From: a virus
Lineage: Duplodnaviria > Heunggongvirae > Uroviricota > Caudoviricetes
Direction: 5' to 3' (one strand)
IMG/VR virus record: IMGVR_UViG_3300035660_001437
DNA: 64,000 nt
The notes beneath the pieces were generated by a model. It saw nothing but the letters and a program-made list of their open reading frames with translations, had not been told where the DNA came from and made no database searches. This document shows, piece after piece, positions 33,804-61,902 of this stretch; position 1 is the stretch's first letter; the number at the start of each line of letters is the position of its first letter. Both the position numbers and the translations under genes were made by a program.

Positions 33804-34907
33804 TCACCTCAGATAGTATTTCGTGCCCTCTTTCAAGCACCGCTTTTCGAAAGCTATCTGCGGCGCTATGTTGTCTCTTATGAGTTCTGCCCTCGCGAAA
33901 ACCCAATCTTCAACCCTCGTGAAAAGCTTCGGATACCTGTACACCGAAGTCAAAATCGACGAAATCCCGCCTATCAGGGTCTCTTTTTTCGCCAGAGCTT
34001 GCATCGAAACGCCGTTGTTTATAAGAGCTTCAGAGAGAAGCTGGAGCGCGTCTGTGTCTATTACCAACGGGCTTGAAATTGACTTTTTGCTGCTCGCCCA
34101 CTTTTCGGCTTCTATGTTGGGCCTGTTAAGGAGGATGAATTTTGCATCCGCATCAGTCGCAACGTGCTGGTGATTTAGCGACGCAGACGCTTTTAGCAGC
34201 CTGTTTGAGTAATCGTATGCTCTTTGAGGTGAGAACTGGGACGTCAGCATCTCGACAATCTCTTCGAAATACGAGGTATCGACCTTTATAGTGTCAATGC
34301 TCGGAAAGTTTATCGTTATTTTAGGCGCGGGTTTGTCCAAATTTATCCTGTTCATGTCGAGGTTGTACGCAAACACGAAATATCTCGCCACCCTGTCCTT
34401 TGTCGTGCCTCTCCACGTCACGAGCTGCCACATTTTGTTGAATATTTCGTAAGTGCACGCTGCCAGGAAGCTGACGTAGGAGTTTTGTATGTTGCACACG
34501 TAACTCGAAGTATTAATCTCGCAGTAGTGGTCGTATATGAGGTCTCCGACGACCCTGAACATGTTCTCCATCACGATATCAGACAAATCCGACATCTCAA
34601 GGCAAATCCACGAGAGCTCAGTGTTTGAGAAAGTCTTGCTGAACCTCTTTGACGCGGCAAGCGTGAACTTTTTCTGGAATATCAACCTGTGCTGCAGGCT
34701 CATTACCCCGTGCAGGCTGGCGCTTTTTCCGCATCCCTGTATTCCGACGTTCATGCAGCCTATATTTGCAATGTCGCAAAGCTTGTTGAAAGCGACTCTG
34801 ACGCCGAGGTTCGGATGCGTTTCAGTAACCTGCCTGACAACAGATATCGTGTTCGGGATTTTTCTCATCTCGTCATCTGTCAGTTTGAGTTCGCTCAATC
34901 TACCCAC
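33804..34907 (-). CDS. hypothetical protein with P-loop-like motif
   Basis: 367 aa; GIQGCGKSA Walker-A-like. Confidence 0.45.
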   Translation of the reverse strand: MGRLSELKLTDDEMRKIPNTISVVRQVTETHPNLGVRVAFNKLCDIANIGCMNVGIQGCGKSASLHGVMSLQHRLIFQKKFTLAASKRFSKTFSNTELSWICLEMSDLSDIVMENMFRVVGDLIYDHYCEINTSSYVCNIQNSYVSFLAACTYEIFNKMWQLVTWRGTTKDRVARYFVFAYNLDMNRINLDKPAPKITINFPSIDTIKVDTSYFEEIVEMLTSQFSPQRAYDYSNRLLKASASLNHQHVATDADAKFILLNRPNIEAEKWASSKKSISSPLVIDTDALQLLSEALINNGVSMQALAKKETLIGGISSILTSVYRYPKLFTRVEDWVFARAELIRDNIAPQIAFEKRCLKEGTKYYLR

Positions 34908-42172: not shown

Positions 42173-42499
42173 TTGACGTTCAAAAGATTTTACAAATGTT
42201 CTGCTGCTTGCCCGACCTTCTCCAACCTAAAAAAGGTGGTTAGAAAAAACATGGCTGGTGATGCAGTTCAAAACAACCTCGTGCTGATTATAGTGCCTCT
42301 TTTCGCTCTGTTGGCTCTGGCAATCATATTCGTGGTGATTCCAATCTTCGCGGGTATGGTCGGCTCAGGCTCAGCAAGCGTTGGACTTGTCAGCATGAGC
42401 AACACAATGGCAAGTTTCGCGCCCATTTACGGTATCGGGCTTGCCATAGGATTGCTTGTTATGTTCTTCGGTTTGGCAGCTTGGTTTGCGGGCAGATAG
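42173..42499 (+). CDS. small membrane protein (paralog of 15213..15506)
   Basis: Two TM helices; shared IYGIGL(A/V)(I/L)GL motif. Confidence 0.4.
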   Translation: MTFKRFYKCSAACPTFSNLKKVVRKNMAGDAVQNNLVLIIVPLFALLALAIIFVVIPIFAGMVGSGSASVGLVSMSNTMASFAPIYGIGLAIGLLVMFFGLAAWFAGR

Positions 42500-42580: not shown

Positions 42581-43558
42581 TTGGAAAGCATATCTAAAGG
42601 TTTGCACGGAATCAACAAAAAGATTCCCACAATATCTTTGGAACGCGATTTTCTGGCTTTCTCTCTCCAAATAGTTTCCCTTTTTGTTTGCATTCTCATG
42701 GCCGCGATTTGGCCGATATTCGGTTTTGACAGCACGGTTAACACTGTTATGAAGTCGATACAAGGAGAGGCGTTAGAGCCAGCTGATTTCGGCGGTCTTC
42801 ATCTTTCGACTGTTCTCAACTTTTTCATAATTGCCTTCCTCGTGAGCAATTATCTTTCTTCGAAGAAAATAATAGCGTTTCACAACGTAATAGTGAGTAT
42901 AATGACGCCGATTGTCGCAATTATGGTTTTTGAGTTTATCTGGGTGTTTTTCACAGATTTTTTCCACAGCGTTCCAATAGAGGGATATTGGGCAATTACG
43001 GCGTACGGTCTCGGATTTATTGATTTTGGAATGCTGGCTCTTGGGATGGTTTTGATACCAATGTCTGCGTTTTACTTCGCTTTTCACCTCGCTTACAACA
43101 AGATAAACTTTTCTCCAAAAGCTGCAGTTAACATGTCGCTTGCGACTGCGACGTTTTCGGCAGGCGCTATACTCGCATTCTCAATTATTTTCGGCACGCC
43201 AACTGTTTTGATTAGAAACTCTTTCGCTGTTATGCTTTTTGCGTTCATGCACGCAACTTTAATGGACTCTCGCAGAGGCAATTTAATTTACGAGTTCAAA
43301 CAGAGAACAGGGCAAGCAATTATACTGGCTGCAGCAGCAATAGTGGTATTAGCGATTTGGGTGTTTTTGCCGCATTTAGAGGTGGTCAAGGGCGCGCTGT
43401 GGCCTCAGACCATATATGCGTTCTACAATAAAGGCGTGATTACGCAGGTGCTGTACGTTCAGAACAACGTGATTCACGCGCTGAACGTTTTGAGCAAAGC
43501 TCTTACTACTGGAGCTGTTTCGCTTGCAATTATACCAAAAATAAGAGCGTGGGAGTGA
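42581..43558 (+). CDS. polytopic membrane protein
   Basis: 325 aa, at least 8 hydrophobic helices; ends 10 nt into the next gene. Confidence 0.5.
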   Translation: MESISKGLHGINKKIPTISLERDFLAFSLQIVSLFVCILMAAIWPIFGFDSTVNTVMKSIQGEALEPADFGGLHLSTVLNFFIIAFLVSNYLSSKKIIAFHNVIVSIMTPIVAIMVFEFIWVFFTDFFHSVPIEGYWAITAYGLGFIDFGMLALGMVLIPMSAFYFAFHLAYNKINFSPKAAVNMSLATATFSAGAILAFSIIFGTPTVLIRNSFAVMLFAFMHATLMDSRRGNLIYEFKQRTGQAIILAAAAIVVLAIWVFLPHLEVVKGALWPQTIYAFYNKGVITQVLYVQNNVIHALNVLSKALTTGAVSLAIIPKIRAWE

Positions 43559-46500
43559 AAATGAAAAAACAATTAATGGCGTTTGTGTTGATGTGCTTTG
43601 TATTAATACCATCATGCATGGTTCTGTTACCGAAGGCATTTGCATACACGGACTATACGGATTTTGAAACTGGTTGGAACGGTTGGACTACTGACGGAAA
43701 TGTTTCTTCTTACGTAAGAGGAACAGTCTATGCACATAACGGAAGTTATTCAGTTTACACGGAGAATGAAAGTCTCACCGAATTTTACATTAACAACACG
43801 TTCACATGGTCTAATGAAACAACTTATCTTACTGTTTGGGCATTAACGGTTGATAATGTTGGCGAGTCAACCGTAAATTGTAAATTAGACTATGAAAACG
43901 GTACGCAAATAAAAGGCTGGTCTTTTCTAGCAAATTTGGAGTATTTAGTGTGGGTAGAGGGATACGCAAATTTAACGCAAGAAGTAGAATCTGAAGTCGG
44001 CGAGCTTGATGGAAAAGTAGTAATTCTTTATTTGGACACGGAAACTTATTATGTAGGGAACACAACTAATTATTATGGTCTTGGAGCAATCGACGACATT
44101 AACCTTACCGAAGAAGCTCCAAGCTTTCCAAGTGCAAGCGTTACCGTTGCTGCATCACCAGAAGGTGTGGGTTCAGTTTGGTTTACATTAAATTACGAGC
44201 CGCACCAAACCGTTTATTCAGAGAACTTAACGTTAGGATTCTATGAATTTGTTGTCCAAAATCTTACTGCTGGTAATTATAGCTTTTCTCATTGGACAGT
44301 GAACGGAACTTTAACTTATGAGAATACTGAGCTCGACATCACAATAGGGGGAAACACGAATATTACCATTGTTTACATTTATACTGCTGGAATTTCATTT
44401 GAATTTTCCAACATTGGTCACAGCACGTATTATGCAGGATGGCAAATCCAATTCTGGTGCACGGTAAAGTGCGAAACAAATGAGTTAATAGGCTACATTT
44501 TTGGGTGGAACGCAAGCGGAACTTGGTACGATTATGATTACAAAACTTTCACTCCGACTTATGAAAAGTACATAAACACTTTCGAGCTCGGAAGCCAATA
44601 CTTACCGTCAAGCTTTACGGAAGTAGTTTACGCATTTCGGGTTAAAGTCGATGGAAATGTTTGGGGATTCAGCGGTTATCAAACTCTTATCAATAAAGCG
44701 CCAGAAACAATAATTTCGGGAGATAATATAGGGCTGAACTGTCCTTGGCAAAGAAATTCATTTTCAAAATATGGAGATAATTATCAGTTCTTTTTCAACA
44801 GTACAGACAAAAAAGTCTATTACGCTGTTAAACCGTTTAACGAGACGGCTTGGGTAGTCGTGCCGAACGCTACTACGACTGCATGCTACTACAGCGCGAT
44901 TGATTGGGGCATTTGGTTCGACGGAAGCTTTGTTTACATAGCTTGGGTCGGAAGTGGCAAAGTAATTTACATGAAAAAGGGGTACATTGATGGTTATGCT
45001 CATAGATTAGCTTGGCATTGGGGCACGGAGACAGTAGCAACCATGGATTGGAGTTACATTGGTTATGGTTATACAGATGTATGCACGAAGTGGGTTAGTG
45101 GAAGCACATATTACTTTGTAAGCGTTAACTTCAAAGGAGTTACTTTCTTCTGGAAAAAAGCAACAGATACAACGTGGCTAAACCAATCAATTTTCGGCCT
45201 TAGTGCGGCTGCTACTCATGCAGAGATAGTGCCATATAGAGACGGCATAGTAGCATTCGCGGTTAAAGGTTGGTACCCTTGCTACGTTTACTATTGGGCA
45301 CTTGCAAATAATAACTTTACATATATGTTTGAACCCGTTCATGTGCCTAATGACTACACTGAGCCAATTGCTCATTCTCTAACTGCGACAGAAGACGGAA
45401 CAAAAGGTTACTTATTAATATCATGCGCTTATTCTTTTAATTATGGTTACGAAATTCAGCTTTTTTCCTTTGAAATAGGTTCTTCTGAATACAATGTAAC
45501 TATCCTCGCAAGAAATGGCGTTGAACAGTATGGCGGGGTTCAAATATTTATTGTGGGAAGTAGAGTAATACCGATGTGGTATGGCGGTTCGACTGGATAC
45601 CCGCCCTACGTTTCACATGTCGTCTTTCAAAACTATGACCTTGGTTTAACAGCGAGTTCACAATACATTTATGTAATAAGAGATTCGTCAATGATTAGTT
45701 CTACTTTCATGATTGGCTTTACGGATTACAAGTACATGCTTTCTTGGATGGCATCTGGCTCTAACGTGATAAAGTGCCAAGAAGCGGACTGGGGAGAACT
45801 TATGCCTTCAATAGACATAGGGAGTTTAGAGATATTAAACAGAAGTTGTCTCGACAGCATTTATGACACAACAAATGGAACGGGTTGGTTAATTGTCGAA
45901 AAGCAATACTACATTTTCAGGATGAACCTGACTGTTTATGGGTGTTCCTTGCATTATGCATCTTTTAAGTTTACGGATGTGGCTGGCAACGACGTAATCC
46001 CATATTACAATAACGTGACGTCTAAAGCAGGTCTTCTTTCAGACACTTCCTTTTCAGCCGTTAATAACCCAATTCTTGTTAAAACTGGCAGCTATTCATA
46101 TTCCATTATGCTCAGCGCTTGGCTGAAAAAGCCTTTAATTGATACGTGGTACGTTGACCTATATGGTTATGCAAACGATACTACTGGCGACATATCTACG
46201 GGTTGGGTTCTCGGTAGAATTGATTACTTCAACATTTACTCGCAAGGTGGTCTCGAGAAGATGACGGCAAGCGGAGATGCTGGAAGGCTTGACGGCGGTG
46301 ATTTCTTTAATCTTTACGCTTACAATAACAGCTTCGCAATGTCTGAAATTTATTGGCGTCATCTCGTCGACGTAAAGTTGTTGTTTTCGTTCCAATGGGA
46401 GCACGGGGCGCCACCTTCAGAATTTCCAACATTGTGGCTTGATTTAGGCTTCAATTATTTTGCGAGAGGCAATTGGTGTGATAGCCAGGAAATATATGTC

Positions 46501-47709
46501 AGGTTAGGATTAGATAGCTTTGCCTACGGCGCTGATTGGCAATATTCGAAGTGGCTTATTCAGATTAAAAGAGGCAGCACCACAATTTTTAGCGACTACA
46601 TTTACGGTTGGTTCGATAGCGAGGATAATACTTTCACAATTTGGCTCGACCTTTGGTTCAACAAAGCCAATGCTTCTTCGATATTTGGCATAAGAGCAAC
46701 GAGCTATTGGTACGCCGTTAAAAATAGCGCAGATTGGCTGCATAGGATTTTTACAGGAAATGATTGGGGTGTTTATTACGCGAATCAAAGTTCATACATT
46801 ATTTTTTCAGAATTACGGGATGAGAGCGAAAATAAGCTTTTCAGTTCAGAGATAGAAATGATAGAGTTATGGGCCAAGCTTTATCAATATAGTCAAAGTT
46901 ATAATTACTCCGGGAAAATAATTCGCATTCAACAATTTGACTATACTTTTAATGTCGAGATGCAAGGCATACCCACACCTTCTTTCGAGGCGCCAAGAAC
47001 GCCGGCCATGCCGATGGGCGGGTTTTTGGGAGTTCTGGCGTCTTGGTTATCAGCTCTTGTAAACGCACTTGCGCCGGCATTTGCATTCATGTGGTCAGGC
47101 GTCGTCTATGTGCTTGACGGCGTACTGCAAGCTCTCACCGGCCAGCCTGGTGTATTCACTAATTTCGTTTCTTTAATATCTGCGATAATAAGTAGCATAG
47201 TTTCGTTTTTCGGCATTCTTGCGAGCAATTTCGTAAACTTCGTGACCGTTGTGTACAACACCGTAACGTGGTTCTTCGGCAGCTTCTTCAGTTATATATG
47301 GGGAATCGTAGAATTCATATTTCTGACGCCGGCATTTAACATAATAACCGTCGTCGCGACAATTTTCGGCATCTCGATTGCGTGGCTCGCAGGGACTTCT
47401 TACACGAACGGCTTTGGTCAGACGTACGACTTCACGAACCTCTCAAATCTCCATTTTGCAGGGCTAAGCGGCGGCATAGTGATATTCTTCTTGATTTTCG
47501 TGGCAGGGTTTTTCCTTCAAATTCTCAAATGCATTTCTACGCTCAGCCTCGGGCCGATACTTGAGCCGATTGGCCTTTTCATGGGCGTTGTGAACTTCGT
47601 GATAAGAATAGTAGAAGTCATCTGGTATCTGATAAGAGGCGTAATACAACTACTTGTGCAAATCGCCCACGCGCTAAGGGACATCGCGCCTCGTCCGATG
47701 GGACTATAA
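43549..47709 (+). CDS. large secreted/surface glycoprotein candidate with C-terminal polytopic membrane domain
   Basis: 1386 aa; N-terminal signal peptide MKKQLMAFVLMCFVLIPSCMVLLPKAFA; W/Y/N/G/T-rich; dozens of N-x-S/T sequons (NGS, NES, NET, NLT, NVS...); last about 250 aa form at least 7 TM helices. Confidence 0.7.
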   Translation: MGVKMKKQLMAFVLMCFVLIPSCMVLLPKAFAYTDYTDFETGWNGWTTDGNVSSYVRGTVYAHNGSYSVYTENESLTEFYINNTFTWSNETTYLTVWALTVDNVGESTVNCKLDYENGTQIKGWSFLANLEYLVWVEGYANLTQEVESEVGELDGKVVILYLDTETYYVGNTTNYYGLGAIDDINLTEEAPSFPSASVTVAASPEGVGSVWFTLNYEPHQTVYSENLTLGFYEFVVQNLTAGNYSFSHWTVNGTLTYENTELDITIGGNTNITIVYIYTAGISFEFSNIGHSTYYAGWQIQFWCTVKCETNELIGYIFGWNASGTWYDYDYKTFTPTYEKYINTFELGSQYLPSSFTEVVYAFRVKVDGNVWGFSGYQTLINKAPETIISGDNIGLNCPWQRNSFSKYGDNYQFFFNSTDKKVYYAVKPFNETAWVVVPNATTTACYYSAIDWGIWFDGSFVYIAWVGSGKVIYMKKGYIDGYAHRLAWHWGTETVATMDWSYIGYGYTDVCTKWVSGSTYYFVSVNFKGVTFFWKKATDTTWLNQSIFGLSAAATHAEIVPYRDGIVAFAVKGWYPCYVYYWALANNNFTYMFEPVHVPNDYTEPIAHSLTATEDGTKGYLLISCAYSFNYGYEIQLFSFEIGSSEYNVTILARNGVEQYGGVQIFIVGSRVIPMWYGGSTGYPPYVSHVVFQNYDLGLTASSQYIYVIRDSSMISSTFMIGFTDYKYMLSWMASGSNVIKCQEADWGELMPSIDIGSLEILNRSCLDSIYDTTNGTGWLIVEKQYYIFRMNLTVYGCSLHYASFKFTDVAGNDVIPYYNNVTSKAGLLSDTSFSAVNNPILVKTGSYSYSIMLSAWLKKPLIDTWYVDLYGYANDTTGDISTGWVLGRIDYFNIYSQGGLEKMTASGDAGRLDGGDFFNLYAYNNSFAMSEIYWRHLVDVKLLFSFQWEHGAPPSEFPTLWLDLGFNYFARGNWCDSQEIYVRLGLDSFAYGADWQYSKWLIQIKRGSTTIFSDYIYGWFDSEDNTFTIWLDLWFNKANASSIFGIRATSYWYAVKNSADWLHRIFTGNDWGVYYANQSSYIIFSELRDESENKLFSSEIEMIELWAKLYQYSQSYNYSGKIIRIQQFDYTFNVEMQGIPTPSFEAPRTPAMPMGGFLGVLASWLSALVNALAPAFAFMWSGVVYVLDGVLQALTGQPGVFTNFVSLISAIISSIVSFFGILASNFVNFVTVVYNTVTWFFGSFFSYIWGIVEFIFLTPAFNIITVVATIFGISIAWLAGTSYTNGFGQTYDFTNLSNLHFAGLSGGIVIFFLIFVAGFFLQILKCISTLSLGPILEPIGLFMGVVNFVIRIVEVIWYLIRGVIQLLVQIAHALRDIAPRPMGL

Positions 47710-47734: not shown

Positions 47735-48238
47735 ATGAAATTACTTCGCAAAGGGGAGTGCTTTACCATAGACGATGACACAACATCTTTCTTCCTCATA
47801 TTTTTCGCGATTTGGGCCGTGATTTTAGTTGTTGCTTCGGCGTACTCCGGCGCGCACGAGCTTTCAAAGCCGCAAGCGGGTGTAATGCTGCTCCAGTCGC
47901 CAGATTTGAACCAGAAGCAAATACTGATAAATCCGATGTTGATAAGAGGGCAATTTTCAACAGGCTCAATTGATTGCGTGTTCTACATTTACAACGAAAA
48001 GACTTACAGCCAGAACGTAACGATTGGATGGTGGCTTGGATTTCAGATGGTAGAGGAGGCAAAATACGTTGACTTCTATTGCTCTGCCGGTAAGAATTTT
48101 ATGATTGCTAACAAAACGCTTTTGGAGTGCTACGTAAAGTTCTCAGTAGCGGCCAGCGCACCGCAAAACGTCAAAGACAAACTTGCAGATGGAAACCCTG
48201 GGATTTATTTAGTGGTAACCGCAAATGTGGAGGAGTAA
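47735..48238 (+). CDS. membrane-anchored hypothetical protein
   Basis: 167 aa with N-terminal TM helix. Confidence 0.45.
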   Translation: MKLLRKGECFTIDDDTTSFFLIFFAIWAVILVVASAYSGAHELSKPQAGVMLLQSPDLNQKQILINPMLIRGQFSTGSIDCVFYIYNEKTYSQNVTIGWWLGFQMVEEAKYVDFYCSAGKNFMIANKTLLECYVKFSVAASAPQNVKDKLADGNPGIYLVVTANVEE

Positions 48239-48500
48239 AATGACAACTGTTCAAACTGTTATTGTGATAATTAAATTCAAGAGCGAAGTCGACGTGTCGG
48301 CATTTAGAAGACCTGCTCCGCCGGGGTTATTCGGCAGCAGAAGACAGAGCATGGGCGTGAACATCATGGAAACTCAAACTATTCCGCTCGACAGGCCGAT
48401 TATTATAATACCGAACGGCGAGGCTGATAGCGTCGAAATAATACCGATAACAGACCAAACTTTGATTCACGGCAAAAATATAAAGAGGCTTTTGAAATGA
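48225..48500 (+). CDS. hypothetical protein
   Basis: 91-aa ORF overlapping neighbours by ATGA. Confidence 0.35.
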   Translation: MWRSKMTTVQTVIVIIKFKSEVDVSAFRRPAPPGLFGSRRQSMGVNIMETQTIPLDRPIIIIPNGEADSVEIIPITDQTLIHGKNIKRLLK

Positions 48501-49012
48501 GCGAAGAGGAAGAGCAATCAAAAGTTGTTAGGCGCGGCCCATTTTACGCTCCGAGACCGCTAACCGAAAAAGAGAAAAAAGAGAAAGAGTTAAAGAGGAA
48601 AATCAACAGAAAATTGCTTGATAAAATGTTTAAAGACGGCAGCTTCGACAGAGCGACTCAAATTATAGCTATGATGATTTCATACGTCAGCTTTCCGCTG
48701 GCAAAGTTTTACCTGTGGCGTTCGCAAATGTTCAACTTCATGTTGGTAGGAGCATCTGGATGTATTTTAGGTTGGCTGCTCTTCAATATCTTTAGGCCGT
48801 TACTATTCTTCGAGTTCCTGGCCTGGGTCGTGGCGACGCTCTGCGTGTTCATGTGGAACTATACCTGGAACAAGGTCTGGTCGCTGAACGCTTTTGCGCA
48901 GTTGAATTTCATGAAGAGAGCGCAGCTGCAGGAAATGAGAGAAAGAATAGACGAGATTTTGAGGAGTAAAAAACATGAAAATCTCAATAATAATCGCTCA
49001 TCATCCGAGTAG
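48497..49012 (+). CDS. membrane protein
   Basis: 171 aa; basic N-terminus plus 3 TM helices. Confidence 0.45.
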   Translation: MSEEEEQSKVVRRGPFYAPRPLTEKEKKEKELKRKINRKLLDKMFKDGSFDRATQIIAMMISYVSFPLAKFYLWRSQMFNFMLVGASGCILGWLLFNIFRPLLFFEFLAWVVATLCVFMWNYTWNKVWSLNAFAQLNFMKRAQLQEMRERIDEILRSKKHENLNNNRSSSE

Positions 49013-49733
49013 GAACAGCTCTCTTTTAGAGGAAATAAAGAAGCTTGAGAGCGAAAAAGTAGAAGTATTAACTTCTTCTAGCGGAAACAAGTCGAAATGC
49101 AGGAATGAACTTGCAAAAATTGCGAGCGGTGAAATTCTGGTGTTCTTTGACGATGATGTGATTCTTAGGCATAATACTATAGAAGAACTGCTGCTGCCTT
49201 TTGACAAGTTTGAAAATGTTGCTATAGTCGGCGGTATAAATGTGCCTATGTACAGCGCTGGTGATTGGAGAGAAACGATTTCAAGTTCTCTGCTTTCTTC
49301 ATCGCTATCTATGGCAAGGTCTGCTGCAAGATACACGTCGAAAGGCGATATCCGCGAAACCGACGAGTCTGAAATAATACTGTGTAATATGGCAATGCGA
49401 AGAGACGTTTTTCTAAAAGCAGGCGGGCTGCCAGAAAACATTATTCCGTGTGAGGAAAACGTTCTTATTAATCGAGTCGCGAAATTGGGATATAAAATAA
49501 TTTACAACCCATTTGCAGTAGTGTATCACGAGAGGCCGAAACTTTTCATGTCTTATTTTAAAAAAATGTTCGGGTACGGTAAGGGCAGGGGAATCATGAT
49601 GCGGAGAGGAGAGGGCGCGCCGAAAATGTTGTGGAGGCCGAATTTAAAGTGGGTTGTTTATCCGATTGCTTTCGCGGGGCACTACGTTTCTTACTTGAGC
49701 GGCGTGCTTTGGGGTTTGGTGAGAGGAAAATGA
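48975..49733 (+). CDS. family-2 glycosyltransferase
   Basis: MKISIIIAHH at N-terminus (GT-A fold start) and DxD (VFFDDDV). Confidence 0.55.
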   Translation: MKISIIIAHHPSRNSSLLEEIKKLESEKVEVLTSSSGNKSKCRNELAKIASGEILVFFDDDVILRHNTIEELLLPFDKFENVAIVGGINVPMYSAGDWRETISSSLLSSSLSMARSAARYTSKGDIRETDESEIILCNMAMRRDVFLKAGGLPENIIPCEENVLINRVAKLGYKIIYNPFAVVYHERPKLFMSYFKKMFGYGKGRGIMMRRGEGAPKMLWRPNLKWVVYPIAFAGHYVSYLSGVLWGLVRGK

Positions 49734-51178
49734 AGATTTTGTGGCTTTGCCCGCCAAGTAAAGTCGAGGGCGAATACCCACTTGTTGGGCAAAATCGCTG
49801 GTTCAAATACCTTCCTTTTAAAGCGAATTTTATTTATCCGATTATCGCTGCAGAAGGCGTCACGCTTATAAAGAACGCGGGTCACGAAATAGACTTTTTG
49901 GAAGCGCCTGCAGAGCAAAAGAGCATGGTAGATGTTCTCCAGCAAATATGGAAAAAAGGTTACGACCTCGTAATCATGGAGGGCAGGACTGCTATAATTA
50001 CGTGGATTTGGCAAGTCGCGAAAACAATAAAGAGCACCAGCATCAGAACAAAAGTGGCGCTGTACGGCGACCACGTGATAGTGAGGCCTCATGAAAGCTT
50101 GCAGAATGGAATAGACTACATTATTGACTGCGGCGACTACGATTATGGCGCTTTTAAACTCGTAGAAGAGCTCTCAAAGACCGGATACGCAAATCCTATA
50201 TTCAGCGAAAATATCATGAAAAACCTCGATGATTTGCCATTCGCGGACAGAGATTTGGTGCCGTGGCACAACTACTTCGAGTCGTGGCGTCACAGAGATA
50301 AATTTGGTTGGTATCAGAGCGGGCGGGGATGCTGGGCAAAATGTACGTTCTGCTCTTGGGTTTACACTTTTTACGGCCATACCATCAGGCTTTTCTCTCC
50401 GAAAAGAATCGCAGACGAAGTGCAGTACGCAACGGAAAAATGGGGTATTGAGGAATACCTCGATGACGCAGACACGTTCATTCCAAAACCGTGGGGCGTT
50501 CAATTTGCGAAAGAGCTCGAGGGCAGAGAGATTGAAATACTATGGAACGTGCAAACTCGCGCGGATACCGCGCTTACCGCCAATGAAAGTGATTGGAAGT
50601 TAATGCGAGACAGCGGGTTGAGAGTAGTAAAGCTCGGCGTCGACGGCGGTAACGAATACACGCTCAACAAAATACAAAAGGGGTACAGAATGGAAGACGC
50701 AGAGAATGCGGTAAAGTTGCTGAAGAAAGCAGGCATAGAAGTCCACATAAACATGATTATTGGCTGGCCTTGGGAAACGAAAAAGGAAGCTTACGGCGTG
50801 ATAAAGTGGGTCAAGCGGTTGAAACCGAATCAGGCGCAGTTTTCTCTTATAGAACCGTTCATCGGTACGCCGATTTTCCAAGAAGCAATAGATAATAAAT
50901 GGTTCGTGAACGCACCGCAAGATTGGGACAAATACGACATGAAGACGCCTATTTTGCAAGGAGAAATGAGCGCCAAGGAAATAGCAAAATTGCACAGGGA
51001 CGCGTGGAAGATGTTTTACTTGAACCCGAGGTTCATAATATATCAGCTTGAAAAATCAACTAAATTAGCTTTCGAAGAAAGAAATCTTGACAGCTTCAGA
51101 CATATTTGGAGAGGGTACAAAGGAGTTACAGAGGGGCACATGAAGGCGGTTAGCACAGGGGATACGTCTAATGAATAA
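49730..51178 (+). CDS. B12-binding radical SAM enzyme
   Basis: Likely starts at MKILWLCPP (ATGA overlap with upstream stop; the track ORF begins at 49631 with an in-frame extension). N-terminal B12-binding-like Rossmann region, then radical-SAM CxxxCxxC (GCWAKCTFCSW). Confidence 0.7.
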   Translation: MKILWLCPPSKVEGEYPLVGQNRWFKYLPFKANFIYPIIAAEGVTLIKNAGHEIDFLEAPAEQKSMVDVLQQIWKKGYDLVIMEGRTAIITWIWQVAKTIKSTSIRTKVALYGDHVIVRPHESLQNGIDYIIDCGDYDYGAFKLVEELSKTGYANPIFSENIMKNLDDLPFADRDLVPWHNYFESWRHRDKFGWYQSGRGCWAKCTFCSWVYTFYGHTIRLFSPKRIADEVQYATEKWGIEEYLDDADTFIPKPWGVQFAKELEGREIEILWNVQTRADTALTANESDWKLMRDSGLRVVKLGVDGGNEYTLNKIQKGYRMEDAENAVKLLKKAGIEVHINMIIGWPWETKKEAYGVIKWVKRLKPNQAQFSLIEPFIGTPIFQEAIDNKWFVNAPQDWDKYDMKTPILQGEMSAKEIAKLHRDAWKMFYLNPRFIIYQLEKSTKLAFEERNLDSFRHIWRGYKGVTEGHMKAVSTGDTSNE

Positions 51179-51827
51179 ACTGTCAAATCTTAAAATACCA
51201 AAAAATGTCGCAATTCTTGCGGTAGTGATTGGATTCGTATTTGTGTCCGTTTATTTCGTCTTGCTTTTCATACCGACAGAAGCAATAATATCTGTTGCCA
51301 GCATAACTAGTATCGGCGGCTCTCACCCGCTTGGAATTTGCGCTTTTATAGGCATGAACGTTTACGCGGCATATAGGTTCGCCAGGCTGGCGAAACTAAA
51401 TCCGAATTCCTCTATTGGTGAGAAGATATTGGCGAAAGTTATTGCAGTAGGAGCGGGAATGTCAGTGGCCCACTCTTTTTTTTACATGTGCGACATGTGT
51501 TCAATACCGACTTTCATAGTTAGAGAAGGAATTGAAGTCCTGCCAAGAATAAGCTATTTGGGCTGGATATGGAATCATGATTTGGGATTTATGAGGTCGA
51601 TGGGATTCCAACTAGTCGTGCTGTACGCTTACAGGAAGTTCATAAATTGGAAGTCGCTCATTGCGATAATCCCTCTAATGTTAACCCTCGCCTTTTACAC
51701 GTACTTCCTCTTTAGCTTCACCGGAATGCACCCACTCGTAGGTGAAACTAGAGCTCTGTTTTTCCTTTTCAGCTACATCCCAACCTGGATTATCTTCTAT
51801 TGGGCATTTGCCAGGTTCTTGAGGTGA
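51171..51827 (+). CDS. polytopic membrane protein
   Basis: 218 aa, about 6 TM helices. Confidence 0.45.
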   Translation: MNKLSNLKIPKNVAILAVVIGFVFVSVYFVLLFIPTEAIISVASITSIGGSHPLGICAFIGMNVYAAYRFARLAKLNPNSSIGEKILAKVIAVGAGMSVAHSFFYMCDMCSIPTFIVREGIEVLPRISYLGWIWNHDLGFMRSMGFQLVVLYAYRKFINWKSLIAIIPLMLTLAFYTYFLFSFTGMHPLVGETRALFFLFSYIPTWIIFYWAFARFLR

Positions 51828-51834
51828 TGAGACG

Positions 51835-52929
51835 TTGAACATTATAGAGCGGATTTTTTGGACAATTCCAAACGTAAACCTATTTGCCGGGAGTCTTAAC
51901 ATTGTTGGTGCCGTTTGGTTCTTTTGCTTGTTTGCTTATGCCTACAGGAGATTCAGACTCGGCTTTCCGCAAACTACTGCAATTTCTCTTGCTTTCATCA
52001 TATCTTTGTTTACGCACTACCTCTTAGATGAATCTTCCGTCATTATTGTTTGGATAATGTACCATTTTGAGTATAATCTTTTCTTGAGCAAAATTCCAAT
52101 ATATATCAGCATGATTATAGCGTTTTATATCATTGCGAGATTTGCGAGGCCGCATCTCAAGGTGGATAGAAAAACAGTTGCTATGTTCGTGACGGTGTGC
52201 CTGTTCGATATGTTTGTATTTTACGTGCTTGTCTCAAATTATGGAACAGCGGGATACAGGAGTTATGACTCTCCAGACAGAGAAATAGCTTTTTGGACTT
52301 TCTATCCTCTTGCAAAAGTTATGTGGTTCGGCTTCTTTTTTACTATGTGGAAAAAGAGAGAATTGTTTGGTCTTGATTTCTTGCAAAAGTACGGAATTGG
52401 TGAGGCGTACATGCTTTGCGCTCTAAAACGATTGTTGAGAAAAATCAAAAAAGAGTTTAACATACATCAGATTTCAGAGATTCTAACAAATGAGTCGTCT
52501 GTAGACTTTCCCGATAGGGACTGGGAAATTGGCGAAAATTCAGAACTTTTATTTGTTTTCAGACCGACTGGCGATGCGATGAACAAGGTGAAAAACAGCG
52601 GCGCAAAATATGTGCTGCTTGCAGCGACAAACAAAAATCATTTCTTGCGCATGGTCAAAAGGCTGCATAGTTTGCTGGGTACAAAAGGAGAAGTTTATGC
52701 GACAAAAAAAGAGCTGAAAGAACTGGCAAAAAAGCACGGGTTTGAACCAATAAAAGACGGGTATTACGACTCGCCGCCTTGGGTCGACCACTCTACACGC
52801 GTTATCGTACCTGCAAAGAAACTTAGGATTGACTTGAATGACGTAAAGTCTTTATTATTTTTTGAGCTCTTTAACTCCAGGTTTACGTCTCACCATCCAT
52901 ACGTTCTGGCCAGGAGGAATGCGAGATGA
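51835..52929 (+). CDS. membrane protein with C-terminal soluble domain
   Basis: 364 aa; N-terminal about 200 aa polytopic, C-terminal soluble. Confidence 0.5.
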   Translation: MNIIERIFWTIPNVNLFAGSLNIVGAVWFFCLFAYAYRRFRLGFPQTTAISLAFIISLFTHYLLDESSVIIVWIMYHFEYNLFLSKIPIYISMIIAFYIIARFARPHLKVDRKTVAMFVTVCLFDMFVFYVLVSNYGTAGYRSYDSPDREIAFWTFYPLAKVMWFGFFFTMWKKRELFGLDFLQKYGIGEAYMLCALKRLLRKIKKEFNIHQISEILTNESSVDFPDRDWEIGENSELLFVFRPTGDAMNKVKNSGAKYVLLAATNKNHFLRMVKRLHSLLGTKGEVYATKKELKELAKKHGFEPIKDGYYDSPPWVDHSTRVIVPAKKLRIDLNDVKSLLFFELFNSRFTSHHPYVLARRNAR

Positions 52930-53675
52930 CTGACTTGCCGAAGATAATGCTGTCGAAAGCTCTGTCCAATCTGATGCTTTTAGGAGGAAAAATAAAGTGG
53001 GCATGCGAGAGAAATTGCGCAACGCTACCTGATAGCAAAATAATTTATTTTTATCCAGGAGATAGAGTAAACGTTTACGGCTATTTGACAACTATATGGA
53101 AATATAACGTCTACGGAGAAATAGAAAAAAATGGGCTGGTAGTTGACGCTGGGGCAAGCATAGGTGTTTACAGCTTGAAAGTTGCAGACATCGCATCCAG
53201 AGTTATCGCTGTAGAGCCGGTGCCGAGAATATTCACGATGCTCGAGAAAAATATAGCGGCAAACATGGTGACAAACGTTATTCCGGTAAACCTGGCTTTA
53301 AGCAATTATGATGGCTCTATAGAGCTGCATTTAACGTCGCAGCTTTTCGGAGAGGGACATGAAATTTCTCCGCTGCACGTTCCGAAAAGTAAAATAGTAG
53401 TTCCGTGCGCTAAATTGGACACGCTCATGAAAAATCTCAAGGTAGACGAAATCACAAATCTCAAAATCGACATAGAGGGGCACGAGCTTTATCTACTTGA
53501 CGGTTCGAAAAGTCTATTATCGCGAGGTTCAATAAAGAATATGTCTATTGCTGTTTATCATTTCAAGGACGAAGAAATGCAGGTTCGAAAGTTTTTGGAG
53601 ATTTACGGCTACAGCACCACTTCCAAGTTCTTCTTTGACGGCGACATAATACTCTATGCGAGGCTAAGAAGATGA
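52926..53675 (+). CDS. FkbM-family SAM-dependent methyltransferase
   Basis: VVDAGASIGVYSLKVA SAM-binding motif typical of FkbM family; 249 aa. Confidence 0.55.
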   Translation: MTDLPKIMLSKALSNLMLLGGKIKWACERNCATLPDSKIIYFYPGDRVNVYGYLTTIWKYNVYGEIEKNGLVVDAGASIGVYSLKVADIASRVIAVEPVPRIFTMLEKNIAANMVTNVIPVNLALSNYDGSIELHLTSQLFGEGHEISPLHVPKSKIVVPCAKLDTLMKNLKVDEITNLKIDIEGHELYLLDGSKSLLSRGSIKNMSIAVYHFKDEEMQVRKFLEIYGYSTTSKFFFDGDIILYARLRR

Positions 53676-54331
53676 GCGTCGGAATAGTTATACCCACTTT
53701 AAACGAAGAAAAGAATTTAGAGAAACTTCTTCCTGCGCTTAGAGAGTATTTTAACGGCGCGAAAATAATCATCGTGGACGACCAGAGTAAAGATGCAACG
53801 GTTGACGTTGCGAGGAGTTACGATTGCATCGTTCTCAAAGCGTACCAAAGAAGAGGTCTTGGCAACAGCTATAAAGAAGGATTATTGACAGCATTGACTT
53901 TGGATTGCGAAATAATAGTGCAATTAGACGCAGACCATCCCGCGCGTCCGGCTTTTGAAATGGTTAACACACTTTTGGCAAAAGAAGACGACATGATAAT
54001 TGGAATTGAAACCGGTAGCAGGACGTTGCACAGCAAAGTGGCGAGTTGGATTGCAAGAAATTATCTCGGCCTTGATTTCAAACAACCGACTTGTGGGTAC
54101 ATGGTGTTCAGCGCAGGTTTCTTAAGCAGACTCGACGTTTCAACTCTTAAATCAAGAGGAGATGCGTTCCATTTGGAGCTTCTCTACAAAGCAAGCAAAA
54201 TGTCGTCGAAAATAGAAGAAGTCAGATTCCAAGGCGTCGCGCATGAAAAAGCTTCTTACAATAGAGTTTTGCGCTGGCTTTGGGAGCTGTTTTTAATGCG
54301 CTGGAGGCAGAGAAAAGCTTATAAACCTTAA
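53672..54331 (+). CDS. family-2 glycosyltransferase (dolichyl-phosphate sugar synthase-like)
   Basis: MSVGIVIPTLNEEKNL...KIIIVDDQSKD pattern of Dpm1/GtrB-like GT2. Confidence 0.6.
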   Translation: MSVGIVIPTLNEEKNLEKLLPALREYFNGAKIIIVDDQSKDATVDVARSYDCIVLKAYQRRGLGNSYKEGLLTALTLDCEIIVQLDADHPARPAFEMVNTLLAKEDDMIIGIETGSRTLHSKVASWIARNYLGLDFKQPTCGYMVFSAGFLSRLDVSTLKSRGDAFHLELLYKASKMSSKIEEVRFQGVAHEKASYNRVLRWLWELFLMRWRQRKAYKP

Positions 54332-54588
54332 AATATCATATATAGGCTGAGGTATGAAAAGTGAGTGAAGCGGTGTACGGATTTGTGGCGCTCGTCGTTC
54401 TAATACTCGGAGTTTGGAAGGCTATTGAGCTCCTAATAAAGATAGTTCGATACACTATTCGAGTAGTCAGAAGAGAGAAAATCTCTGAAGAAGACGAGGC
54501 GCTGAGAAAGAAAATAGAGGAAAAGCTCAAATTTTTAAAGAAGAAAAAGCGTTCTTAGCTTCGCAAAGAGAGCGAGAAACATTTATAT

Positions 54589-54858
54589 ATGCGTGCGCAT
54601 ACGTTAAACCGAGGACTTATTATGGTATGGCGCTGCAATAAATGCGGGTTAGAGCTAAAGCCTGAAGATAAGATGCCAACAAAGATGCTTGAGAGGTTGC
54701 TGAAAGACTCGCGCTGCCCTAAAGACATCAAGCGTGCTTTCAAATACGGCATGGTTTGTCCGGAGTGCGGGAGAAAGCTGAGGATTATTGGCATTTACCT
54801 GTGCCCGAACTGTGAGGCAATATGTTTAGAAGGAGCGGAGCATATTGAAGCCTTTTGA
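54589..54858 (+). CDS. zinc-ribbon protein
   Basis: CNKCG...CPECG...CPNCE. Confidence 0.4.
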   Translation: MRAHTLNRGLIMVWRCNKCGLELKPEDKMPTKMLERLLKDSRCPKDIKRAFKYGMVCPECGRKLRIIGIYLCPNCEAICLEGAEHIEAF

Positions 54859-55663
54859 AGAGCTTTCAATAAGCGGAAAATGGGCCATAGAACATCCTGG
54901 GTATTCGAGAGAATACCGCAGAACGCAGAAGTTTAGAGAACGGCAAAGAAAATATCACAAGTGGTATTTTAGACATCTCGAATCCGCAAGGAAGCGCGGC
55001 GAAAAGTGGCGAAGGGAGCATCCCGAGTACAATAAAGAATATTTCGCAAGGTCGGAAGTTAAAGATAAGATGAGAGAATATGTGAGAAAATGGCAGAAGG
55101 ATTTGAAAGAAGAAGTCTTTTCTCATTACTCAAGCGGCGCGCCGGAATGTGCCTGCTGCGGAGAAATGAGAATTGAATTCCTGACCATTGACCACATTGG
55201 AGGCGGAGGGAATAGGCATAGAAAAGAAATAGGTGGCAGCTCGACGATTTATTTATGGCTCAAGCGAAACAATTATCCGCCAGGATTTAGAGTTCTCTGT
55301 TTTAACTGCAACTTCCTAGTATTCAAACAGAAAGTGAGATGCGCAAAATATCCTCGCCATCAAGGGCGGAGGATTAATCTTAGGCTGGAGGTCTTGTATC
55401 ATTACTCTAACGGTGCATCTGTCTGTAAGTGCTGCGGCGAGGGCAATATTGACGTCTTGACTATTCACCATGTTGGAGGAGGCGGGCTAAAACATCTTGA
55501 AGAAATAGGCGGAGATATTTGCGGCTGGCTCAAACGCAACAATTACCCGCCGGGCTTCCAGGTGCTGTGCTGGAACTGCAATGAGGCAAAAGCCCATTAC
55601 GGCTTCTGCCCGCACGAAATTGAGAGAGCAAGGGAAGAGTTTAAGAAAATTTGTATCGTCTAG
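54845..55663 (+). CDS. tandem HNH-motif endonuclease-like protein
   Basis: Two copies of CxCCGE-x5-(F/V)LTI(D/H)H(I/V)GGGG...YPPGF(R/Q)VLC(F/W)NCN. Confidence 0.55.
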   Translation: MKPFEELSISGKWAIEHPGYSREYRRTQKFRERQRKYHKWYFRHLESARKRGEKWRREHPEYNKEYFARSEVKDKMREYVRKWQKDLKEEVFSHYSSGAPECACCGEMRIEFLTIDHIGGGGNRHRKEIGGSSTIYLWLKRNNYPPGFRVLCFNCNFLVFKQKVRCAKYPRHQGRRINLRLEVLYHYSNGASVCKCCGEGNIDVLTIHHVGGGGLKHLEEIGGDICGWLKRNNYPPGFQVLCWNCNEAKAHYGFCPHEIERAREEFKKICIV

Positions 55664-55949: not shown

Positions 55950-56153
55950 ATGTTGGAAGTGGGTAGCTCCAAAGAGGCGATAAAGTTGCCAAAGACCAAG
56001 CACGTCAAACTAGGAGACGGGCTCGACAAACTTTTCAAGGAGAGAGCGACGTACAGCTCGTCGGCACACAAAGCAAAAGGCTCAACCTGGCTAAAAGAAC
56101 CCCCGAAATACGGCACACAAAAAGCCGGCGGTAAAAGACGGAAGAGGAGGTGA
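55950..56153 (+). CDS. small basic protein
   Basis: 67 aa ending GGKRRKRR. Confidence 0.35.
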   Translation: MLEVGSSKEAIKLPKTKHVKLGDGLDKLFKERATYSSSAHKAKGSTWLKEPPKYGTQKAGGKRRKRR

Positions 56154-56157
56154 TTGC

Positions 56158-56367
56158 GTGGTGTACAGTTGGAGAGGTAAAAAGCCACTTCCGATGGGCG
56201 GGTTCGTCACGGAGGAAATCAGCGGCGGCAAAGTTGGCAAAAAATCTTCTAAGAAACGTGCAAAGAAAGTGTGGACAGGCCCAATCAAATCGCCTGCCAA
56301 ATCGTCTTTCCACAAATCCATCGAAAAGGGCAAGAGAGCGAAGAAGAACTGGACTGGAGGGTTCTAG
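56158..56367 (+). CDS. small basic protein with repeated KRAKK(V/N)WTG motif
   Basis: 69 aa; KRAKKVWTGP and KRAKKNWTGGF. Confidence 0.4.
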   Translation: MVYSWRGKKPLPMGGFVTEEISGGKVGKKSSKKRAKKVWTGPIKSPAKSSFHKSIEKGKRAKKNWTGGF

Positions 56368-56736
56368 ATGGCAGTGGGCTTTAGAAAAAGAGTGAGAGGC
56401 ACTGCCAGGCAGATAGGAAAAGCTTTTCCTGTTTTTACAAAGAGGAAACTGCCCACGAAATTCGGAGGCAAAAGAAGATTGAAGCCGAAAGACACGATTG
56501 TTCTGCAATTTGAATACCCGGACGAGGCTGAAGCTTTCAGAGATGCTTACTATGCAGTAGGCGCGGTGTCTGACTTCCCAGCGCCCGAAGATGAAAAGGT
56601 GGTTAAAAACACAGTCATTCTCAGGTTCGACAAAGAAATCATAGAAGACAATCCAGACCTTGCAGACGACACGCTTGAATACCTCAAAAGAGCAAGTTTC
56701 TTTACGGTCAAGCCGAAAAAAGTGTGGACGGCCTAG
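56368..56736 (+). CDS. basic-leader paralog family member A
   Basis: N-terminus MAVGFRKRVRGTARQIGKAFPVFTKRKLP; SD GGAGGG upstream; C-terminus ends KPKKVWTA. Confidence 0.55.
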   Translation: MAVGFRKRVRGTARQIGKAFPVFTKRKLPTKFGGKRRLKPKDTIVLQFEYPDEAEAFRDAYYAVGAVSDFPAPEDEKVVKNTVILRFDKEIIEDNPDLADDTLEYLKRASFFTVKPKKVWTA

Positions 56737-57057
56737 GTGGTTGACATGGCAATCAAAGCAAAAAACAAGAGCTGCATAGCCGGCGCGCTGAGAGGCAAAG
56801 TCGGCTGGCCACTTGTCAGCAAGCGAAGGAGAGGCGGAAAAAAGCCGAAATATTGGATTCAAGAAGCAATCGGTGTCAAGGGCTCGCTGAGAGAAGAAGT
56901 CATGCGGAGGAAGGGAAGAGCCGGTTTTGACTCGCGCGGCAGGATAAAAGCGAGTGTCATAGAAGAAATCATACGCAAAGACGGCTTCAAAAAGCAGGCA
57001 GTCCTGGCAAGAACGCTCCGCGGGCTGAAAAAGCGAGGTAAAAGGAGGGAGAAGTAA
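56737..57057 (+). CDS. small basic protein
   Basis: 106 aa, K/R-rich. Confidence 0.4.
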   Translation: MVDMAIKAKNKSCIAGALRGKVGWPLVSKRRRGGKKPKYWIQEAIGVKGSLREEVMRRKGRAGFDSRGRIKASVIEEIIRKDGFKKQAVLARTLRGLKKRGKRREK

Positions 57058-57059
57058 AA

Positions 57060-57302
57060 ATGCCGAATCCCGTAAGAGCAATGTTTTGGGGACTGCGGAA
57101 ACAGGGGTACTCAGCTGCAGAAGCAGAAAAGCGAACTAGAGAATATTTTTCGGCGAAAAAAGCACGCAAAAGTGATAAGAAAATGCCGCAAAGGAGAATG
57201 GGAAAACCGAGGACAGATGCAGAAAGGAGAGCTAGGCACATGGCTATATATGGTACTGAAAAGTTACCGCCTAGAGGAACAGGGCTGCGAAGGAGAGGCT
57301 GA
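57060..57302 (+). CDS. small basic protein (MPN...)
   Basis: 80 aa; SD AGGAGGG upstream. Confidence 0.4.
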   Translation: MPNPVRAMFWGLRKQGYSAAEAEKRTREYFSAKKARKSDKKMPQRRMGKPRTDAERRARHMAIYGTEKLPPRGTGLRRRG

Positions 57303-58203: not shown

Positions 58204-58388
58204 CATACAGACTGAGAGTTGCAACGAGAATATCCAAAAAGACCGGCAGACCCGCCGGCCCCAGAATGACCAGCGTCAAATATCGAAAACTAAAATCAGC
58301 CAGGATAGACGCAAGAGCTATCGCAAATCCATACGATATCGTAAAAGTTGACAAAAAAGGAAAAGTCGTAAAGAGGTATTACAGATGA
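58200..58388 (+). CDS. small basic protein
   Basis: 62 aa; ATGA overlaps both sides. Confidence 0.4.
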   Translation: MTYRLRVATRISKKTGRPAGPRMTSVKYRKLKSARIDARAIANPYDIVKVDKKGKVVKRYYR

Positions 58389-61708: not shown

Positions 61709-61902
61709 GTCTTAAAACAATAAGAAGAACAGTCAAAAAATCAATTACCGACGAGAAGCAAGCTTCTCCTCACTACAGAAAACTGGCATCCAAGATGAGC
61801 AAAGCCGGCCTTAAGAAAGAGGCCAAAACAGTTCGAGGAATAGCGAAAGTTGAAACGCAGCACAGGAAAAAGCTGAAGAAGATTTTGAGGAAACTGAAAT
61901 GA
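61705..61902 (+). CDS. small basic protein
   Basis: 65 aa. Confidence 0.4.
   Translation: MSLKTIRRTVKKSITDEKQASPHYRKLASKMSKAGLKKEAKTVRGIAKVETQHRKKLKKILRKLK

Follow-up and report, generated by a model that had tools for sequence, protein, structure and literature searches.

The DNA analysed here, hereafter the window, is a stretch of 64,000 nucleotides from the IMG/VR virus record IMGVR_UViG_3300035660_001437. Its plus strand carries a gene for a giant, spike-like protein, flanked by genes for small and membrane proteins and followed by genes for glycan synthesis. An initial annotation, made from the sequence alone, had assigned the open reading frame (ORF) at 43549-47709 (+) to a signal-peptide protein of 1386 residues. 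The ORF is present and its product does begin with a signal-peptide-like segment, but 43549, a GTG, is the earliest possible start. The likely start is the ATG at 43561, which has GGGAGTG just upstream and yields a product of 1382 amino acids (aa) rather than 1386, matching the protein called on two further public contigs. The gene is laid out as follows, with residues numbered on the 1382-aa product.

43561..47709 (+): giant spike-like glycoprotein, 1382 aa (ORF, start context, family search)
43561..43644 (+): signal-peptide-like N-terminus, residues 1-28, with KAFA before and YT after the putative cleavage point (hydropathy, sequence inspection)
43645..44412 (+): variable N-terminal domain, residues 29-284, starting with a DFETGWNGW motif (family comparison)
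44413..45795 (+): central domain, residues 285-745, common only to the homologues P0002 and P0013 (family comparison)
45796..46965 (+): family-conserved beta-sandwich core, residues 746-1135, a predicted ConA-like lectin/glucanase jelly roll with sequons N872, N922 and N1037 (family search; AlphaFold, predicted local distance difference test (pLDDT) of about 90)
46966..47007 (+): conserved linker motif G-I-x-T-P-S-F-E-x-P-R-x-P, residues 1136-1149 (family alignment)
47008..47685 (+): hydrophobic helical C-terminal domain, residues 1150-1375 (hydropathy, AlphaFold)

The N-terminus, MKKQLMAFVLMCFVLIPSCMVLLPKAFA followed by YT, has a basic n-region, a hydrophobic core (Kyte-Doolittle maximum of 2.7 over a 19-residue window) and an A-x-A site. 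It is signal-peptide-like in having the n-, h- and c-regions of a Sec signal peptide, and it would be cleaved after the A-x-A site. The product was said to be rich in Trp, Tyr, Asn, Thr and Gly and to carry dozens of N-glycosylation sequons, and both statements hold: Tyr (7.9%) and Trp (3.8%) are unusually abundant, next to 8.3% Ser, 8.3% Gly, 7.8% Thr and 5.9% Asn, and there are 31 N-x-S/T sequons (19 NxT and 12 NxS) where composition predicts 12.7 (z of about 6). In the ectodomain we counted 30 sequons against 11.8 ± 3.1 in composition-preserving shuffles (z = 6.0), and none of 5,000 shuffles reached 30. The reversed control motif [ST]xN occurs only 12 times in the whole protein. Sequon density, which the initial annotation had proposed to compare with the genomic background, is 22.4 per 1,000 aa in the giant protein versus 3.8 in the 42 other ORFs of the window, where sequons are not enriched (40 seen, 41.8 expected). 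The densest region is formed by the 256 residues at the N-terminus of the predicted mature protein (residues 29-284), with 14 sequons or 54.7 per 1,000 aa.

A word-index search with the giant protein found just three proteins. An exhaustive HMMER search with a three-sequence profile recovered 352 representatives of clusters defined at 50% identity (E <= 0.001), 225 of them at 1e-30 or better. All members share the C-terminal 620 residues or so (about 750-1382 in the window protein), while their N-terminal parts are unrelated. Their lengths lie between about 750 and 2277 aa. Most begin with a signal-like hydrophobic stretch, and DUF2341 or weak CBM_4_9 matches occur in some. The members that were checked are absent from NCBI and UniRef, and 'hypothetical protein' is the only name they bear. 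Pfam and PHROG scans of the giant protein gave no match, and neither did an INPHARED tblastn, pattern scans of IMG/VR for the family or a scan of GTDB representative genomes.

In the locus L092, which comes from a contig of 79 kb, the genes on either side of the spike have 80-98% identity to those of the window. The spikes of L092 and of the window share about 90% identity in the hydrophobic C-terminal domain, the most conserved part of the protein, about 60% over residues 909-1150 and 30% over residues 711-909, and are unrelated before residue 710 or so. Genomes that are otherwise 80-98% identical thus differ by an exchange of the N-terminal two thirds of this protein, which is what one would expect if it is a receptor-binding spike. 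Receptor-binding proteins of viruses characteristically combine a constant end for attachment with a distal end that can be exchanged.

Sequon enrichment extends to the whole family, with 2,453 sequons seen against 1,278 expected and 1,261 occurrences of the reversed motif. Individual sites are conserved too: N1037 in 51 of 52 aligned sequences, N872 in 37 and N922 in 34. Because the family-wide excess exceeds the reversed control and single sequons are conserved, the sequence data show selection for glycosylation sites rather than a by-product of composition. The three conserved sites are concrete candidates for glycoproteomics. Taken with the signal-like N-terminus and the hydrophobic C-terminus, these data make it very probable that the giant protein is secreted, stands at the surface with a heavy load of N-glycans and is anchored by its hydrophobic C-terminus.

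The signal peptide, the sequon enrichment and the Thr/Ser/Tyr-rich, beta-rich ectodomain would also suit an S-layer or cell-envelope glycoprotein of an archaeal cell. We give this possibility very little credence, since every locus examined is a gene-dense, virus-like contig, a scan of representative genomes in GTDB turned up no relative, the checked family members are absent from NCBI and UniRef, and the C-terminus is a 226-aa multi-helix domain instead of a PGF-CTERM or single-transmembrane anchor. The initial description as a surface, envelope or S-layer-like protein therefore stands as far as a secreted and probably glycosylated surface protein is concerned; the protein sits in a virus-like structural module and is not a cellular S-layer or envelope component.

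Structure prediction of the ectodomain, another proposal of the initial annotation, was carried out for residues 740-1382 with a 52-sequence alignment and gave a mean pLDDT of 81, with the beta-sandwich domains at about 90; a model made with a 3-sequence alignment reached a pLDDT of 43 and was not used. By its predicted beta-jelly-roll fold, the core (residues 746-1135) would belong to the ConA-like lectin/glucanase superfamily. Foldseek comparison of the model with the PDB and BFVD returned generic immunoglobulin, lectin and tail-protein beta-sandwich matches only, all with a TM-score below 0.5, and a sequence search of the PDB found no solved structure related to the giant protein. The region before the core (residues 29-745) had one marginal match in the word-index search and none in PDB sequence searches. 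Its DFETGWNGW motif resembles the NGGFETG..GW motif of CBM_4_9, a family that is weakly matched, among the homologues, by P0002 and P0003 only. The modelled ConA-like core and the N-terminal motifs resembling CBM point to a role in recognising glycans.

The C-terminal domain (residues 1150-1375 or so, 226 aa) has only 4.4% charged residues, with 22 Gly and 39 aromatic residues. It had been read as a polytopic segment of about 250 aa with seven or more helices. As a reading of hydropathy this is fair, four hydrophobic blocks amounting to some six to eight transmembrane lengths, but AlphaFold draws four long helices (39, 80, 22 and 45 residues; 416-454, 459-538, 567-588 and 592-636 in model numbering) and one short exposed hairpin, at a pLDDT of 60-85. 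The idea that the domain consists of repeated capsid-protein units was rejected (hhalign probability 0.2%).

Membrane insertion is the way in which phage tape-measure and ejection proteins and viral fusion proteins work, and the C-terminal domain could in principle insert into the host membrane on contact, as a fusion or DNA-translocation device, so that the protein would be an entry machine instead of, or besides, an adhesin. The low charge, the 22 glycines and the very long predicted helices of the 226-residue domain fit this idea, as do its status as the most conserved part of the protein and weak tape-measure PHROG matches in 5 of the 52 family members. These matches are nonetheless weak (E of about 2e-4), absent for the window protein and possibly a reflection of composition alone. 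Furthermore, a signal peptide with a hydrophobic C-terminus predicts anchoring in the membrane during synthesis, not a soluble pre-fusion state, and neither a heptad-repeat nor a fusion-peptide architecture was found. We consider an entry machine unlikely; it is compatible with a role as spike. A phage tape measure protein as such was rejected: the window protein has no PHROG match and tail genes are absent from the window.

The surroundings of the gene were compared all-against-all in seven loci, together with three from the metagenome scan. In the window they comprise the following features.

42251..42499 (+): 82-aa protein with two hydrophobic helices, putative spindle-type major capsid protein (hydropathy, neighbour comparison)
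42581..43558 (+): 325-aa polytopic membrane protein, conserved upstream partner (neighbour comparison)
47735..48238 (+): 167-aa conserved partner with an N-terminal hydrophobic helix and a beta-rich domain (neighbour comparison)
48240..48500 (+): 86-aa conserved partner (neighbour comparison)
48497..49012 (+): 171-aa protein resembling GtrA and the transmembrane domain of dolichyl-phosphate-mannose synthase (DPMS), conserved core (Pfam, E 0.0019)
48975..53675 (+): variable glycan cassette of about 4.7 kb (neighbour comparison)
48975-49733 (+): family 2 glycosyltransferase (GT2) of the cassette (family scans)
49730-51178 (+): B12-binding radical SAM enzyme of the cassette (family scans)
51171-51827 and 51835-52929 (+): two polytopic proteins of the cassette (ORFs in the window)
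52926-53675 (+): FkbM methyltransferase of the cassette (family scans)
53672..54331 (+): conserved GT2 with a GtrB/DPM-synthase-like catalytic domain (orthologue of the GT2 that directly follows the GtrA-like gene elsewhere)
54361..54558 (+): 65-aa membrane protein after the conserved GT2, here and in L006 (neighbour comparison)

By homology, the order of the module is kept as a capsid-like protein of 82-84 aa, a polytopic protein of 325-401 aa, the giant protein, a protein of about 160 aa with an N-terminal helix, one of about 90 aa, another of about 160 aa and a GT2. From the polytopic partner through the spike, the proteins of about 160 and 90 aa and the GtrA-like protein to the GT2, the order is homologous in at least six loci, and the association of the spike with downstream glycan genes recurs in 10 related loci. 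The 82-aa capsid-like protein is conserved at E of about 1e-30 in L003, L005 and L008. Members of the 167-aa partner family (47735-48238) were found in L005, L006, L008, L094, L095 and L010. Two of 24 scanned proteins, which probably belong to this family, match archaeal Pilin_N, the N-terminal domain of type IV pilins (E 3e-4), a hint that the partner may carry a class III signal peptide.

The protein of about 160 aa preceding the GT2 appears to be GtrA/DPMS-transmembrane-like: PF04138 is matched by 8 of 24 scanned proteins (best E 1.5e-5, all below the Pfam cut-off), nine of the 24 being members of the 171-aa family, and the scan output does not name the matching members. The GT2 assignment has an E-value of 5.7e-15, and the match to a GtrB-like PHROG one of 2e-12. 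In L005, L006, L008 and L095 the GtrA-like gene and the GT2 are adjacent. Because the GT2 of these other loci corresponds to the second GT2 of the window (53672-54331), the region 48975-53675 is best described as a cassette inserted into a conserved GtrA-like/GT2 pair. The contig L003 carries a giant protein 100% identical to that of the window and near-identical small partners (L003 5982-15210 versus window 47735-54331), but its cassette differs, with a GT4, a CDP-alcohol phosphatidyltransferase and a cytidylyltransferase. An identical spike beside different cassettes implies that the exchange of cassettes was very recent. Further gene sets occur in L092, L102 and L103, including a PMT_2-type GT-C enzyme (L102), an epimerase, a pyruvyl transferase and methylases. 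The dedicated set of glycan-modification genes placed directly downstream by the initial annotation thus exists, with two GT2s, a radical SAM enzyme and an FkbM methyltransferase, and its link to the spike recurs; it has to be read as a conserved pair plus a variable cassette instead of a single set.

Phage GtrA/GtrB(/GtrC) modules and the archaeal DPM synthase provide the nearest parallels. What is shared with them is the conserved pair of a GtrA/DPMS-transmembrane-like protein and a GT2 directly after it, to which L102 adds the PMT_2-type GT-C enzyme. What differs is that the catalytic and membrane parts are separate polypeptides in reverse order, and that the transmembrane part scores below the Pfam cut-off. 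From sequence similarity, the GtrA/DPMS-like protein and the GT2 plausibly produce a sugar on a lipid carrier, which would serve to glycosylate the spike or the host envelope at the outer face.

The glycan genes also allow a reading in which the giant protein is no part of the virion but a surface protein of the infected cell (a decoy, a superinfection-exclusion factor or a substitute S-layer), with the glycan genes remodelling the host surface as in Gtr serotype conversion. Both GT2s of the window match 'GtrB-like O-antigen conversion' PHROGs and stand with a GtrA/DPMS-like partner, and surface conversion would be useful to spindle viruses, which are usually chronic and non-lytic (10.1101/2021.07.29.453957). 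Against this, every locus has the capsid-like gene on one side of the spike gene and other conserved small genes of structural type on the other, and a conservation gradient whose distal end is swapped is usual for proteins by which virions bind their receptors. We hold this reading to be improbable.

Beyond this module the window is dense in small genes, and tRNA and Rfam scans of it gave no match. Positions 1-42,000 read leftward and contain genes for a eukaryote-type topoisomerase IB, an SPFH protein, a Dam methylase, PolB, an RFC-like ATPase and ThyX, the last with its closest relatives, at about 42% identity, in large crenarchaeal spindle and rod viruses (STSV, ATSV). From 42.2 kb the genes run rightward, opposed to this replication arm, with the morphogenetic module starting at the 82-aa two-helix protein. 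Two further features bear on the nature of the element.

56737..57057 (+): putative fusellovirus VP2-like basic DNA-binding protein (phmmer)
33804..34907 (-): 367-aa P-loop protein with the Walker A motif GIQGCGKS, a candidate morphogenesis ATPase without family match (conserved beside the structural module in L008 and L095)

In phmmer searches the VP2-like ORF matched a PF25632-annotated protein of the relative L006 at 2e-17 and SSV1 VP2 at 2.4e-5. Within the enzymatic arm, the capsid-like two-helix protein has a divergent second copy at 15213-15506 (-) (blastp 6e-8 to the L005 and L008 copies), from which we conclude that the element has two capsid-protein paralogues. Another two-helix ORF (15463-15714, -) sits beside this copy, and both adjoin the SPFH/Band-7 gene at 13799-15154 (-). 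Neither an icosahedral or HK97 capsid gene nor tail genes were found in the window. A small relative, L001, has a DnaA-like ATPase match (phrog_5484, 1.5e-4) and a weak integrase match. By its gene content the window is a virus-like element, with the giant protein in its structural module.

Several other observations were made in the two arms. The topoisomerase IB at 8243-9751 (-) is full-length, with an N-terminal DNA-binding fragment (5e-43), a catalytic core (1e-60) and a C-terminal domain (3e-15). Five very basic paralogues at 56368-56736, 58385-58951, 58948-59355, 61899-62453 and 62243-63091 (+) share the motif R-x-R-G-T-x-x-Q-x-G-K-x-F-P, which is N-terminal in four of the five, and have relatives in L005, L006 and L008; their region shows a strong strand bias of A over T, with an AT skew of up to +0.39. 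Two other paralogues, at 54845-55663 and 59656-60303 (+), share the N-terminal motif L-K-P-[FY]-[ED]-E-L-S-x-x-G-K-W-A and have no family match. A long minus-strand ORF of 348 aa at 56035-57081 (-) is probably spurious, the plus strand coding there for the VP2-like protein and a member of the basic family.

Small two-helix and polytopic membrane proteins also occur in type-IV-like transfer systems, and the giant protein might on this ground be an adhesin or mating-pair component of a non-viral mobile element (a plasmid, or Ced/Ted-like DNA transfer), with the two-helix protein as a VirB2-like pilin and the polytopic proteins as VirB6-like parts. The Pilin_N matches, probably of the partner family of about 160 aa, and the absence of an icosahedral or HK97 capsid gene would agree with this. 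On the other hand, no VirB4/HerA-type ATPase was detected among the larger window ORFs scanned, a VP2-like gene is present, and in size (12-79 kb) and gene layout the contigs agree with spindle viruses. A transfer element is accordingly a very improbable explanation.

Spindle viruses share a morphogenetic module of a major capsid protein and an adhesin, which the module of the window matches, and they are usually chronic and non-lytic (10.1101/2021.07.29.453957). An arm layout like that of the window has been reported for large ANME-1 spindle viruses (PMC9894754). With the large spindle viruses (Itzamnaviridae and Tepeuviridae of ANME-1; Bicaudaviridae; Huangdiviridae of Bathyarchaeia) the element has in common contigs of 75-79 kb, structural and enzymatic arms, PolB, ThyX, two capsid paralogues and multigene cassette insertions (PMC9894754), and it carries a putative VP2-like gene and a GT gene, as Huangdivirus does (PMC10541130). 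It differs from the large spindle viruses in that no sequence link was found, the spike and the capsid-like protein having no INPHARED match and ThyX being only about 42% identical. By analogy, the element is probably an uncultivated, archaeal, spindle-shaped virus of at least 75 kb.

The closest functional counterpart of the giant protein is the fusellovirus tailspike VP4 of SSV19, a protein of 1236 aa that is N-glycosylated at NXT and ends in a beta-sandwich and a hydrophobic three-helix bundle (PMC9351363). The bundle forms a ring where the capsid strands begin, with lipids in its clefts (PMC9351363), and SSV19 virions hydrolyse host N-glycan (PMC12042106). Fusellovirus VP4 and, by prediction, the giant protein are large secreted proteins of a spindle-type virus morphogenetic module, with a sequon-rich ectodomain and a carbohydrate-related domain. 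In both, a C-terminal beta-sandwich precedes a hydrophobic helical domain, which in SSV19 joins the spike to the hydrophobic capsid (PMC9351363) and here is an AlphaFold prediction. A polytopic anchor on a giant glycoprotein had been called unusual, but a hydrophobic multi-helix anchor at the C-terminus of such a protein has a precedent in SSV19 VP4. SSV1 C792 likewise has hydrophobic segments at its end, with small hydrophobic proteins encoded after it, but homology to C792 was rejected, as hmmsearch of the family profile against the SSV1 proteins found nothing significant and hhalign gave a probability of 0.2%. There are differences as well: the helical domain of SSV19 VP4 measures about 72 aa against about 226 aa here (roughly threefold); the GH76-like alpha/alpha6 barrel of VP4 is not seen in modelled residues 740-1382, where the core is ConA-like; and fuselloviruses infect Sulfolobales, whereas our sequences come from sediment-type metagenomes with a linkage to Bathyarchaeia. 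ConA-like lectin/glucanase (LamG-type) adhesins of archaeal and bacterial viruses, such as the CBM modules of phage Dit proteins and the receptor-binding domain of TM4 gp23, lack a signal peptide, the sequon load and the hydrophobic C-terminal domain.

The linkage to Bathyarchaeia comes from a distant family member, P0028 (L010 3498-11000; L011), which lies about 5.5 kb from an archaeal ribosomal-protein operon whose S3 is 85-88% identical to that of Bathyarchaeia metagenome-assembled genomes. P0028 adjoins a Cas1 gene at the end of a 94-kb contig, and the junction to Cas1 was assembled independently in a second sample. The locus is likely to be a provirus or integrated element. On these sequence grounds the family, not this particular virus, is tied to Bathyarchaeia, and a host in Bathyarchaeia or a related lineage of the TACK archaea is likely for the virus. 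A Bathyarchaeia spindle-type provirus with VP1-3 and a glycosyltransferase has already been described (PMC10541130).

Taking these lines together, we regard it as reasonably probable that the product of the gene is the spike, an adhesin or tailspike, by which a large, uncultivated archaeal virus of at least 75 kb binds its receptor. The virus is probably spindle-shaped, with a likely host in Bathyarchaeia or related TACK archaea. Some results weigh against this. No sequence homology was found to SSV1 C792, to PDB structures (those of SSV19 VP4 included, if its chains are in the PDB copy searched), to PHROGs or to INPHARED. The 82-aa capsid-like protein has no significant profile match to SSV1 VP1/VP3, its likeness being one of architecture only; the VP2-like ORF scores 20 bits in Pfam, below the curated cut-off of 27; and no integrase was found among the window ORFs scanned. 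The helical domain is modelled at a pLDDT of just 60-85 and could be an ordinary polytopic membrane domain. The host assignment depends on one distant family member on a Bathyarchaeia contig.

If the gene does encode such a spike, the Sec system would export the protein by means of its signal peptide, and the host oligosaccharyltransferase, acting at the outside of the cell membrane, would attach N-glycans to as many as about 30 sequons. The 226-residue hydrophobic helical domain would retain the protein in the membrane. During a budding-type assembly this domain would embed in the hydrophobic capsid or lipid shell formed by the 82-aa two-helix protein, in the manner of the SSV19 VP4 three-helix bundle. 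The membrane-proximal ConA-like beta-sandwich core would then act as a constant stalk, and the exchangeable N-terminal two thirds as the distal part that binds host surface structures, probably glycans. The conserved GtrA/DPMS-transmembrane-like and GT2 pair probably makes a sugar linked to a lipid phosphate, and the swappable cassette of transferases and methylases would modify glycans carried by the spike, the infected cell or both.

A broader proposal, which we put forward only tentatively and consider rather doubtful, is that these viruses carry their own extracytoplasmic glycosylation system, which rewrites the coat of both the spike and the chronically infected cell. Its parts would be a split dolichyl-phosphate-sugar synthase (the GtrA/DPMS-like protein and the GT2), polytopic transferases (the conserved 325-aa partner and the PMT_2 GT-C enzyme of L102) and the fast-exchanged cassette of methylase, radical SAM and transferase genes. 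Glycan identity and the swappable N-terminal modules would then be what the arms race between virus and host mainly turns on in Bathyarchaeia-type archaea. The enlarged C-terminal domain would have no relation to the VP4 bundle and would represent a new kind of module for capsid seeding or membrane insertion.

To our knowledge, receptor-binding proteins of archaeal viruses are known from just a handful of cultured systems. The family described here has no model in Pfam or PHROG. It would identify the spike gene, and hence the determinant of host range, of a widespread group of uncultivated viruses, and a profile of the 620 conserved residues at the C-terminus could be used as a marker to detect such viruses in metagenomes. 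The link to Bathyarchaeia, which are abundant sediment archaea, touches a host group whose viruses are barely known. In these loci the anchor and stalk stay constant while the distal modules and the glycan cassettes are exchanged, which would provide a record of host-range and glycan evolution that can be read from genomes.

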